A stretch of 36,176 nt of DNA, from assembly GCA_964444635.1 (NCBI GenBank), contig CAYUIA010000002.1, positions 1 through 36,176 on the forward strand. The letters run 5' to 3'. Below, piece by piece: positions 1 to 16,322 of this stretch. Each line of letters begins with the position of its first letter. Position 1 is the first letter of the stretch. This stretch comes from an uncultured Gammaproteobacteria bacterium. GTDB taxonomy: Bacteria; Patescibacteriota; Patescibacteriia; Magasanikbacterales; GWA2-37-8. The translations under genes were made by a program, and so were the position numbers. The notes under the pieces were generated by a model, which saw nothing but the letters and a program-made list of their open reading frames with translations, searched no databases and had not been told where the DNA came from.

Positions 1-55
1 GAACTCCCATCCTCAGGTTCGAAGCCTGATATTTTATCCATTAAACTATAGGGGC
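1..55 (-). tRNA. tRNA-Arg (anticodon UCG), 5' portion only; 3' end lies beyond the window start
   Basis: Reverse complement of 1-55 reads GCCCCTA-TA-GTTT-AATGGATA-AAAT-A-TCAGG-CTTCGAA-CCTGA-GGAT-GGGAG-TTC. This gives an acceptor strand, a 4-bp D stem, a 5-bp anticodon stem with 7-nt loop C-U-UCG-A-A, and a T-stem strand followed by TTC. Truncated by the window edge. Confidence 0.8.
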
Positions 56-13963: not shown

Positions 13964-14524
13964 TTAAATATGCGGTATAAAGGCCTCCTCTTCATAGAGC
14001 AATATTTCCTTTGAACCAATCCTGATTTCAACTTTACTCTGAAATTTTTCTTCCAGTTCTTTGCCTATCTCTTTGGCTTTTGGGAGAAATTTCTCCCCAA
14101 AAACCTCCATCTTCCAACTGCAGTCAATTTCTGTGCAAGGTATTTTTTTGCACAAATAAAGATTGGCAATACGAACTTCCACCGCTTTACCGGATTTTAT
14201 TATCCAGTAAAACACTAAGCAAATGGCAATAAAAAAAGCTAACCCGATAATAGCACCGTTTTTGATGCCTATCAGACAGGAGAATGAAAAAACGAATAAC
14301 AATCCTCCTATGATAGGCCAGATTATAAACGGCTTGCCGTCTTTTTTAAACGACATTTTACTGAGATCGGGATCATTCATCACAATCCCCATCTCTGTTT
14401 CTTCTCCGTCAAACTTTTCGTCTTTGTCCTTTTTACAGACAAAAAGTCCTTTGCGAGAAAGAAACTTTGCTACTTCTTTCGCTGTTTTGAGAGCATTTAA
14501 TTCTTCGTCTTTGCTTTTTTTCAT
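13964..14524 (-). CDS. Two-TM membrane protein (186 aa, starting MKKSKDEEL)
   Basis: GAGGAGGA precedes ATG 14524. The track's extension to 14740 would read through a promoter, a terminator and the GC-rich RNA candidate. Confidence 0.7.
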   Translation of the reverse strand: MKKSKDEELNALKTAKEVAKFLSRKGLFVCKKDKDEKFDGEETEMGIVMNDPDLSKMSFKKDGKPFIIWPIIGGLLFVFSFSCLIGIKNGAIIGLAFFIAICLVFYWIIKSGKAVEVRIANLYLCKKIPCTEIDCSWKMEVFGEKFLPKAKEIGKELEEKFQSKVEIRIGSKEILLYEEEAFIPHI

Positions 14525-14569
14525 ATTTTCCTCCTCTGGAAAAAATTGTAAAAGGTACGATAACAAAAT

Positions 14570-14598
14570 ATTGTGGCATCTTTTTTTCTTTTTGTCAA
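14570..14598 (-). promoter_or_regulatory. Sigma70-type promoter
   Basis: Minus strand TTGACA-N17-CACAAT. Paralogous to the promoter at 15185-15213. Confidence 0.6.
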
Positions 14599-14608
14599 TC
14601 TTTGTTAA

Positions 14609-14848
14609 TAAAAAAACAGCTTGTATCAAAACAAGCTGTTGACAAAAAAGAACTGAAAGATGTCGTCGGAGGTATGTACGGCGGAACCTCACAAGCATGA
14701 ACGCACTTCGTGCAGCATTGTGTGTGGGTGTGCAAAACACTGGTCCCTATTCGCCTGTTAAGACTTGCTTTCGCTTTAAGGATGACCACCACAACCGACG
14801 ACGCGTTTAGACGCACCTAACTGATGTCCTCCGCCACTGTCAGTAGGC
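14609..14848 (-). ncRNA. Unclassified structured RNA candidate (~240 nt) with its own promoter and terminator
   Basis: Locally GC-rich with no credible ORF. Promoter at 14855-14883. Terminator AACAGCTTGT-tttgat-ACAAGCTGTT followed by T7 (14609-14640). Hand-found helices: GGUGCGU-CUAA-ACGCGUC, GCAC-GAA-GUGC, GC-GAAA-GC inside CCUUAA/UUAAcaGG, and long-range GUCGUCGG/CCGACGAC. Confidence 0.55.
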
Positions 14849-14854
14849 TTTGTC

Positions 14855-14883
14855 ATACTATCAATAATGAATTGTGGTGTCAA
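14855..14883 (-). promoter_or_regulatory. Sigma70-type promoter of the RNA candidate
   Basis: Minus strand TTGACA-N17-TAGTAT. Confidence 0.6.
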
Positions 14884-14900
14884 TAAATTATTTTTGAAAA

Positions 14901-14930
14901 TAAAAAAACCACCCATATAGCGGGGTGGTG
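14901..14930 (-). terminator. Terminator of the 62-aa gene
   Basis: Minus strand ACCACCCC-gctatat-GGGTGGT followed by TTTTTT. Confidence 0.7.
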
Positions 14931-15289: not shown

Positions 15290-15318
15290 TTGACAAATTG
15301 GCTAACTTTTGCTATTAT
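15290..15318 (+). promoter_or_regulatory. Sigma70-type promoter of rplA
   Basis: TTGACA-N17-TATTAT, giving a leader of about 65 nt. Confidence 0.65.
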
Positions 15319-15389
15319 TTCCTCACTAATAACTCGGTGGGATCCTGGGGACAATCCTTTGGGAGCTAATACCACTAAACATTTTATAT

Positions 15390-16064
15390 ATGGGAAAAAG
15401 AATGAATGCAGTCTCTGCTAAAGTAGACAAAAATAAAGTCTATACTGCGGACGAAGCTATCAAATTGGTGAAAGAAACTTCCGCCGTCAAATTTGACGCC
15501 AGTGTGGAAGTTCATGTCTTGCTCGGAATTGATCCGAAAAAAGGCGAACAACAAATCCGCTCCACCGTCGTTTTGCCTCACGGCACCGGTAAAAGCAAGA
15601 AAGTAGCTGCTTTCGTTTCTGCTGAAAAGGAAAAAGAAGCCAAAGAGGCAGGCGCCGATTTCATCTACAATGAGGAAGATATCAAAAAAATCAAAGACAC
15701 CGGTAAAATAGAATTTGATGTGGCTGTCACCACTCCGGATATGATGCCAAAAATGGCCGTAGCCGCGAAAGTATTGGGTCCAAAAGGCCTAATGCCAAAT
15801 CCGAAAACCGAAACTGTCGGTCCGAATATCAAAAAAATGGTTGAGGAATTGAAAAAAGGTAAAATCACTTTCAAAAACGACGATGGCGCCAATGTCCATC
15901 AAATCATCGGCAAAGTCAGTTTCGACGAAGCCAAATTAAAAGAAAATTTTGAAACATTTTTGGATGCTCTCAAAAAAGTGAAACCAAATTCCGCTAAAGG
16001 AACTTATATCAAAAACTTGACTGTCAATGCGACCATGGGTCCGGCGATAAAGGTACAAGCTTAA
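15390..16064 (+). CDS. rplA: 50S ribosomal protein L1
   Basis: 224 aa. YTADEAIKLVKE..KFDASVEVHVLLGIDPKK..QIRSTVVLPHGTGK, typical of L1. Confidence 0.95.
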   Translation: MGKRMNAVSAKVDKNKVYTADEAIKLVKETSAVKFDASVEVHVLLGIDPKKGEQQIRSTVVLPHGTGKSKKVAAFVSAEKEKEAKEAGADFIYNEEDIKKIKDTGKIEFDVAVTTPDMMPKMAVAAKVLGPKGLMPNPKTETVGPNIKKMVEELKKGKITFKNDDGANVHQIIGKVSFDEAKLKENFETFLDALKKVKPNSAKGTYIKNLTVNATMGPAIKVQA

Positions 16065-16077
16065 TAAAATTTTTAAA

Positions 16078-16106
16078 AAGTCCGTTCGAAAGAGCGGACT
16101 TTTTTG
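16078..16106 (+). terminator. rplA terminator
   Basis: AAGTCCG-ttcgaaaga-GCGGACTT followed by TTTT. Confidence 0.7.
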
Positions 16107-16109
16107 TCT

Positions 16110-16228
16110 GTCATTCCCGCCTCCGAGCGGGAATCCAGTGGTCAATTTAATATTAAACTTTCCTGGATCCCTCGCATTTCCCAAAGGGAGGCCTTTGGCC
16201 CGCGGGATGACACTTCGTGTCATTTTTT
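16110..16228. repeat. GTCATTCCCGC...GCGGGATGAC palindromic element plus terminal hairpin
   Basis: GTCATTCCCGCCTCCGAGCGGGAATCCAG ... CTGGATCCCTCGC...GCGGGATGAC, then ATGACAC-ttc-GTGTCAT followed by TTTTT. Confidence 0.75.
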
Positions 16229-16255
16229 AGGCTATTTTATTGGCCTTTTTACTGC

Positions 16256-16284
16256 TTGCCAATACCCCCAAAATTTGATAAATT
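16256..16284 (+). promoter_or_regulatory. Possible promoter of the thymidylate cluster
   Basis: TTGCCA-N17-TAAATT. Confidence 0.4.
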
Positions 16285-16322
16285 TGATATGCTAAAAAAC
16301 TCTAATTTTTAAACTATTTTTT

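Follow-up and report, generated by a model that had tools for sequence, protein, structure and literature searches.

A stand-alone gene for a structured noncoding RNA of a probable new family upstream of rplA in Candidatus Magasanikbacteria

Gene content of the rplA region

The window analysed here is the whole stretch of 36,176 nucleotides, and within it the gene at 15390-16064 encodes ribosomal protein L1 (rplA), whose nearest relatives come from MAGs that carry the label Candidatus Magasanikbacteria or Patescibacteria. The remainder of the window consists of chromosomal housekeeping genes, including those for UvrD, TGT, aminoacyl-tRNA synthetases and GatB. The rplA transcription unit (15290-16105, plus strand) seems to be monocistronic rather than part of the usual rplKA operon, with a promoter (TTGACA-17-TATTAT, 15290-15318), a 5' UTR of ~70 nt and a terminator of its own (16076-16105), and it is followed by a cluster for dTMP synthesis (dCMP deaminase, P-loop kinase, dUTPase, ThyA, DHFR and Tmk).

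Upstream of rplA and on the opposite strand lie a 66-aa gene, the RNA gene described below, and a 186-aa membrane-protein gene (13964-14524, minus strand). The true start of this last gene is at 14524, with GAGGAGG just upstream. The 66-aa gene ends in its own intrinsic terminator (14908-14929, minus strand), which forms the left boundary of the RNA cassette and means that the RNA does not represent the 3' UTR of the 66-aa gene. All coordinates given below for the RNA gene refer to the minus strand.

Promoter, terminator and predicted transcript

The original prediction was of a stand-alone GC-rich unit running from a promoter to a terminator, and the RNA gene indeed opens with a promoter, after which come ~190 nt of folded body, ~21 nt of U-rich linker and finally an intrinsic terminator. 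A consensus scan of the minus strand recovers the predicted promoter, TTGACA-N17-TAGTAT, at 14855-14883, with the -35 hexamer at 14883-14878, a 17-nt spacer, an extended -10 TG at 14863-14862 and the -10 hexamer at 14860-14855. It scores 10 of 12, in a region with 16 promoter-like sites as against 6.8±2.6 in shuffled sequences. The body (14650-14849) has a GC content of 50-52%, compared with 26-39% in the flanks, in keeping with the ~200-nt GC-richer segment that had been noticed.

The clean terminator with a T-run that had been proposed is located at 14609-14640 (AACAGCTTGT-TTTGAT-ACAAGCTGTT followed by the T-run), and consists of a 10-bp stem closed by a UUUGAU loop; it forms the right boundary of the cassette. 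A further promoter (TTGACA-17-CACAAT with TG, 14570-14598), which had also been foreseen, follows immediately; it lies outside the RNA and serves the 186-aa gene. Taking the 5' end from the position of the -10 box and the 3' end from the terminator U-run, we infer a transcript of ~245 nt (14609-14853).

Copies of the RNA in related genomes

Using rplA and MazG as anchors together with nhmmer and a covariance model (R1), we identified six distinct copies of the RNA in closely related Ca. Magasanikbacteria, and these fall into three sequence types. Type A comprises the window and the related loci L020 and L112, type B comprises L004 and L122, and type C is represented by L114. The R1 match to the window copy extends over 14637-14853, and the window sequence is present in identical form on eight further contigs from several samples; JGI samples 3300010351, 3300009780, 3300009674 and 3300025762 contain it. 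All of the copies are upstream of rplA and divergent from it, in a hypervariable spot. The -35 hexamer and the sequence TGATAG are kept in all six, the A/T-rich stretch upstream of the promoter is likewise conserved, and the terminator is conserved across all copies even though the flanking genes differ. The unit thus keeps its own promoter and terminator in all homologues, in line with the stand-alone unit first proposed.

Searches with nhmmer and R1 over ~950 kb of rplA neighbourhoods from Magasanikbacteria and other Patescibacteria returned nothing beyond these six copies, and the RNA is single-copy both in the 36-kb window and in the ~950 kb of related loci. MazG failed as a synteny anchor, there being no linkage between it and the RNA outside the clade. 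A scan of metagenome contigs with the pattern GCACACCCACACAC-N(10-40)-TTGTGAGG gave eight chance hits and no homologue; this negative is weak because the scan missed JGI contigs that carry exact matches to the pattern (e.g. Ga0116248_10000765 and Ga0116156_10008495), and the true distribution may be wider. A six-frame pseudo-protein query for spurious ORFs called over homologous RNAs had no match in a set of 5.8 billion proteins.

Predicted fold of the RNA

The predicted architecture is a 5' hairpin, P2, followed by a near-perfect four-way junction of helices P3, P4, P5 and P6 with 0-1 nt between helices. The loops of P2 (L2) and P6 (L6) are predicted, with support from covariation, to form an 8-bp G+C-rich kissing pseudoknot, which would lock the P2 hairpin against the four-way junction. 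P2 (14816-14847; CCUA-CUGA/UCAG-(U)-UAGG) is returned by RNAalifold and has 8 bp, a 1-nt bulge and a 15-nt loop L2 at 14839-14825. Five of its eight pairs are changed on both sides between types, with 95.8% of cells paired; the outer pairs are CCUA/UAGG in type A and GUCU/AGAU in type B, and an inner pair is found as A-U, G-C, G-U or U-G. The 5' strand of the kissing helix is GUGGCGGA within L2 (14830-14837), and its partner is UCCGCCGU within L6 (14678-14685). These two strands had been put forward as a non-nested helix, and covariation now backs it, as the pair at alignment columns 28/182 is G-C in type A, C-G in type B and A-U in type C.

The junction is closed by P3, formed by GUCGUCGG (14795-14802) and CCGACGAC (14662-14669), which corresponds to the long-range helix found by hand. 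It is kept in all copies: every cell of its 8 bp is paired, with a single U-A to U-G change. Between P2 and P3, type A alone has, as a lineage-specific insertion, the small hairpin P2a (14803-14814, GCGU-CUAA-ACGC), which shows one G-C to G-U change in L112 and is missing from L004, L122 and L114. This is the inner part of the earlier helix GGUGCGU-CUAA-ACGCGUC; the longer version competes with P3.

The P4 domain (14723-14793) is built on P4 itself (UGUGG 14793-14789/CCACA 14727-14723), in which a U-A pair is replaced by C-G in L114, and on P4a (GGUC 14787-14784/GACC 14745-14742), in which two pairs are changed on both sides (G-C/A-U and C-G/U-A). The segment between the P4a strands is rebuilt differently in each type, and the sub-junction holds a GAAA-tetraloop hairpin (14774-14767). 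This GC-GAAA-GC hairpin is conserved in all types, but the CCUUAA/UUAAcaGG pairing in which it had been placed is unsupported. The domain is completed by the P4b hairpin (14740-14730, GUGU-UUU-GCAC).

P5 (14690-14722; CACAA(U)GC 14722-14715/GCUUGUG 14696-14690) has 7 bp, with one C-G to U-G change, and a variable loop, 18 nt long in type A versus 7 nt in types B and C. The difference is the GCAC-GAA-GUGC helix, which had been predicted and is present in type A, but which is a lineage-specific insertion not found in the other types. P6 (14670-14689) pairs AGGU (14689-14686) with ACCU (14673-14670) around the 12-nt loop L6 (UCCGCCGUACAU); its 4-bp stem is invariant and thus uninformative on structure.

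Between the folded core and the terminator is the U-rich linker (14641-14661, AUCUUUCAGUUCUUUUUUGUC), which is predicted to be single-stranded. It is 21 nt long in the window and 24-27 nt in the other copies, with UUUCAG-YUCUUU conserved. A helix P1 that would close the 5' end against the linker was rejected as inconsistent between types. In types A and B, CUGN could alternatively pair with the UUUCAG of the linker, with weaker support than the P2 hairpin. A CCUCC near the 3' end had been suggested to mimic an anti-SD sequence; this idea falls because the motif is not conserved and reads CCUACC in types B and C.

Compensatory changes between the sequence types

Pair counts were obtained from a hand-curated alignment (A9) that was fitted by hand to the structure. 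RNAalifold, run on A9 and not given the model, returns P2, P3, P4, P4a, P4b, P5 and P6, with 8 of the 40 consensus pairs compensatory. The full model with the kissing helix has 56 pairs, in which 96.3% of cells form standard pairs, compared with 26-47% for slid partners. Nine pairs are changed on both sides, a count reached in 1 of 500 shuffles, and the covariation score is 0.210 against 0.105±0.015 in shuffles, none of 500 of which reach 0.210; these statistics are weak because they come from only three independent sequence types within one narrow clade. P3, P5 and P6 hardly vary and are therefore neither supported nor contradicted by covariation. Folding energies are unremarkable, with an MFE z-score of -2.2 when the full unit is folded and scores between -0.2 and -1.6 when only the cores are.

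Within type A, the L112 and window copies differ at 8 of 216 RNA positions, relatively more than the 3 of 561 in the adjacent 186-aa gene, and all of the changes within helices keep a standard pair, including an A-U to G-C swap in P2, the G-C to G-U change in P2a and a U-G to C-G change in P4b; the remaining changes are in unpaired positions. Between types, the indels (11, 9, 4, 7, 1 and 3 nt) are placed at hairpin tips between shared conserved blocks. Covariation among relatives, which had been named as a check on the prediction, is thus observed, and the three sequence types in the hand-fitted alignment show a predicted fold that has been maintained by compensatory change.

Coding potential

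Three ORFs overlap the unit, of 258 aa (13964-14740), 73 aa (14595-14816) and 46 aa (14776-14916). The first two had been recognized as the only ones, and the 46-aa ORF is an addition to them. Public gene callers report the 46-aa ORF and a 221/258-aa ORF, neither of which belongs to a Pfam family. In the L004 copy every one of the six frames is interrupted by stops, and the ORFs of L114 differ in frame and lie on the opposite strand. As the indels are not multiples of three and break every frame, the RNA is not coding, and the absence of a conserved reading frame among the copies agrees with the noncoding unit that had been proposed. The 46-aa call (14776-14916, minus strand) and the N-terminal extension in the 221/258-aa call (13964-14740, minus strand) are probably mis-annotations.

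These data bear on the possibility that the locus is either a short coding gene or a non-functional GC-rich intergenic remnant that looks conserved only through close kinship. The copies do belong to a single narrow clade, type A copies are nearly identical as a result of recent exchange (see below), the MFE z-scores are weak, and of the 46-, 73- and 258-aa ORFs two are called publicly. We nonetheless consider such a remnant or gene quite improbable, given the nine compensatory pairs, the one pair with three Watson-Crick states, the confinement of indels to hairpin tips in lengths other than multiples of three, the stops in six frames of L004 and the shifting frames and strands of the ORFs between types, the lack of a Pfam family for the publicly called products, and a promoter and terminator that are kept in every context.

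Relation to the downstream gene

A same-strand downstream gene is present only in type A (window, L020 and L112), where it starts ~85 nt past the terminator. Past the terminator, L004 and L114 have a convergent gene, and L122 has no called gene for ~500 nt. We considered whether the RNA could be a cis-regulatory leader or riboswitch, in which a ligand would be sensed by the body and the terminator would control whether transcription continues into the 186-aa membrane-protein gene (13964-14524). The type A arrangement is of the kind required, and a junction-plus-kissing fold placed directly before a terminator resembles an aptamer with its expression platform. Direct reading of the sequence also shows that the 3' strand of P5 (GCUUGU) repeats the 5' strand of the terminator, so that an alternative pairing is conceivable. 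Against this, the convergent downstream gene in two lineages argues that the RNA is not a 5' leader, the 186-aa gene has its own promoter, a homologue of that gene is found in L003 without the RNA, and there is no match to a riboswitch family. A leader is therefore very improbable.

A dispensable and exchanged cassette

Both flanking-gene homologues are present in L003, in which L1 is 92% identical, and a cassette of ~300 bp is missing, such that the upstream terminator runs straight into the promoter of the 186-aa gene homologue with no RNA between. In the RNA-positive loci the cassette starts at the T-run of the preceding terminator (TTTTTTTATTTTCAAAAA) and ends at its own T-run (TTTTTTTATT). 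As L003 keeps both flanking genes without the RNA, the RNA constitutes a discrete, dispensable cassette. The RNA is also missing from the rplA locus in L002, L111, L115, L117, L118 and L119, and its absence at the locus in sister genomes shows that it would not be essential, unless these genomes carry a copy elsewhere.

The genes immediately upstream of the RNA copies are mutually unrelated, although L112 and L004 have the same terminator hairpin plus TTTTTTTATTTTCAAAAA ahead of the RNA promoter as the window. Synteny with the two flanking genes had been suggested as a test; the flanking genes differ between copies, with unrelated genes upstream and convergent genes downstream in L004 and L114. 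No protein family was found to co-occur with the RNA in the loci compared.

The history of the cassette differs from that of rplA. Third codon positions of rplA are 80% identical between the window and L020 or L112, whereas for the same comparisons those of the 186-aa gene are 98-99% identical and the RNA is 96-99% identical. In L122, rplA is closest to that of the window (95%), yet the RNA is of type B, so that RNA type is incongruent with the rplA tree. We interpret these patterns as the outcome of recombination, by which the block containing the RNA and the 186-aa gene has evidently been exchanged horizontally in recent time; the near-identity within type A is therefore no evidence of selection. 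The window segment 13964-14853 has a mosaic ancestry, the 186-aa gene and the RNA together reaching ~99% identity among the window, L020 and L112, and the PBP/MazG-rplA interval is a hot spot of recombination, with a different set of genes in almost every relative.

Such behaviour raises the question of whether the RNA could be part, or a leftover, of a mobile or defence element, such as an orphan IscB/TnpB omega-RNA scaffold, a retron ncRNA or an intron fragment within a variable island. The patchy presence among close relatives, the clean presence or absence of a cassette with TTTTTTTATT at both ends, the incongruence and recent exchange described above, and the shifting set of small unrelated neighbours are all compatible with this. 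However, no transposase, reverse transcriptase, nuclease, integrase, IscB/TnpB or intron-encoded protein is beside any copy, the Rfam models for HEARO/omega-RNA, group II introns and other mobile-element RNAs do not match, blastn against phage and plasmid collections gave no match, and three scans of viral contigs gave nothing real. The RNA also has its own sigma-70 promoter and terminator and is single-copy wherever it was sought in the window and the related loci. We regard an origin as a part of a mobile element as improbable.

Comparison with known RNA families

The RNA was compared with the 4227 covariance models of Rfam 15, a family being called at or above its gathering threshold. There was no match at gathering score in the window copy or in about eight related loci, and at E<=10 the window copy and the shorter L004 copy produced nothing but noise, scoring 12-19 bits where the thresholds are 36-195, most of it falling on the terminator. 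The cmscan search that had been recommended thus places the RNA in no family at either cutoff. This includes the families that the original prediction had failed to match: at E<=10 there is no match to 6S RNA (RF00013 or related), to SRP RNA (RF00169 and RF01854; 4.5S and Bacillus-type) or to RNase P RNA (RF00010, RF00011 and type-T), there is no Rfam match to tmRNA or to the known riboswitch aptamer classes, and ARAGORN reports neither tRNA nor tmRNA in the window. The 5' part of a tRNA gene is nevertheless present at 1-55 (minus strand), cut by the window edge; it scores 39 bits with the Rfam tRNA model and is absent from the ARAGORN output.

The housekeeping RNAs have distinctive structures. 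6S RNA is a long rod with a large central bubble; SRP RNA has a domain IV with a GNRA loop and symmetric and asymmetric loops; RNase P RNA has a P4 helix with conserved CR-I and CR-V; and tmRNA combines a tRNA-like domain with a tag reading frame. The RNA described here has a four-way junction and a kissing hairpin within 190-245 nt, and the GAAAGUCC-type motif of RNase P RNA is absent. The size (~200-245 nt) and the stand-alone promoter and terminator would be typical of a diverged 6S, SRP/4.5S, RNase P or tmRNA gene, and CPR sequences are often divergent, so that a housekeeping RNA could be overlooked by the Rfam models. But none of these models matches even at E<=10, ARAGORN detects no tmRNA, neither the 6S central bubble, nor an SRP domain IV motif, nor the RNase P P4 with CR-I and CR-V is recognizable, and sister species whose L1 is 92-94% identical cleanly lack the RNA at this locus. 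There is only a very slim chance that this is a housekeeping RNA.

Several known RNAs do share general properties with the one at rplA. The raiA motif RNA, OLE, ROOL and GOLLD, orphan 'ornate' bacterial ncRNAs whose functions are at most beginning to emerge, are likewise stand-alone, multi-helix RNAs with a pseudoknot and covariation, noncoding, with no obvious cis target, and forming GC-rich islands in AT-rich genomes. There is no Rfam 15 match between them and the RNA here, which differs in being phylogenetically very narrow and dispensable between sister species; OLE, ROOL and GOLLD are also much larger. Cobalamin (L5-L13 kissing loop) and lysine (L2-L3) riboswitches resemble it in having a junction core nearly without linkers, distal kissing loops, a GNRA-capped peripheral helix and a terminator directly downstream. 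Unlike them, the RNA here lacks a B12 box or L-box consensus and an Rfam match, has its kissing partner 5' of the junction, and is not consistently upstream of any gene.

In the Varkud satellite ribozyme the loop of a 5' hairpin kisses a loop of a downstream multi-junction domain through a 3-bp helix. The topology predicted here may be analogous, although its kissing helix has 8 bp, there is no sequence similarity, and no cleavage-site internal loop can be identified. Finally, terminator-anchored trans-acting sRNAs have the same combination of own promoter, single-stranded U-rich segment, and terminator hairpin with a U-tail. Compared with typical base-pairing sRNAs, the body of the RNA here is far more structured and target complementarity in the window is not above background: with the linker as an antisense seed against the 65 translation-initiation regions of the window, the best interaction is -15.8 kcal/mol, within the range for shuffled sequences (-15.1±2.0).

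A stand-alone structured RNA and its possible role

It is very likely that the cassette encodes a real, stand-alone structured RNA of a new family. The description first offered, of a stand-alone, noncoding, structured RNA of no known class, survived testing in each of its parts, and leader, mobile-element RNA, housekeeping RNA and relic all rank lower. Among stand-alone structured bacterial ncRNAs the RNA is a new family, with a known range, as far as searched, of one narrow clade. Our overall best explanation, with a probability of roughly 0.6, is of a self-contained gene for a structured ncRNA of an undescribed family that would, by inference, act as a scaffold in trans.

Patescibacteria have genomes of ~1 Mb that are under strong reduction, and folds this complex are usually those of ribozymes, riboswitches or RNP scaffolds. 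In genomes so reduced, a maintained 200-nt RNA with a junction, a GNRA domain and a kissing pseudoknot is unlikely to be idle. Because a compact junction-plus-kissing fold with a GNRA-capped helix is of the kind found in aptamers, ribozymes and RNP scaffolds, we favour a partner-binding scaffold over an antisense regulator. One plausible model is that the RNA would be pre-folded and would bind a partner in trans, either a protein or a small ligand, while the U-rich linker and terminator would form a tail that stabilizes it or takes part in interactions. Under this model the RNA would be neither a cis-leader nor a simple antisense RNA. Taken on its own, the proposal that the RNA acts in trans as a partner-binding scaffold is tentative, and the odds are against it. 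A more ambitious reading, which we think unlikely, is that the RNA could be the first of a new class of tertiary-structured functional RNAs in CPR/Patescibacteria, acting as a ribozyme or as a sensor of a ligand or protein. Its active or binding site would then be formed by the kissing architecture of hairpin and junction, and it would pass from one species to another in a minimal cassette with its promoter and terminator.

The noncoding RNA biology of Patescibacteria is essentially uncharted, and stand-alone structured ncRNAs are not known to have been reported from this phylum. A literature search on ncRNAs of Patescibacteria and Magasanikbacteria found nothing relevant, and a 2024 review of Patescibacteria (PMC11665869) brings up riboswitches solely as potential tools; the terms 'small RNA', 'sRNA', 'ncRNA' and 'noncoding' are absent from it. 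The scope of the present finding is one narrow clade and three sequence types. The cassette is tiny, self-contained and horizontally exchanged, which makes it easy to synthesise and to probe in vitro, and the sister species provide a rare natural contrast between presence and absence of the RNA.

A repeated GC-rich element downstream of rplA

A separate GC-rich palindromic element is located just past the rplA terminator at 16106-16228 (plus strand), and consists of GTCATTCCCGC-N6-GCGGGAAT and, further along, GCGGGATGAC, after which come a small hairpin and a T-run. It is absent from the corresponding site in L002. Many Magasanikbacteria loci share the ATTCCCGC/GCGGGAAT hairpin (among them L001, L003, L013, L027, L028, L031 with three copies, L075 and L122), and the element looks like a member of a REP- or MITE-like repeat family. 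It also gives rise to spurious ORFs on both strands, at 16104-16295 (plus) and 15936-16223 (minus).
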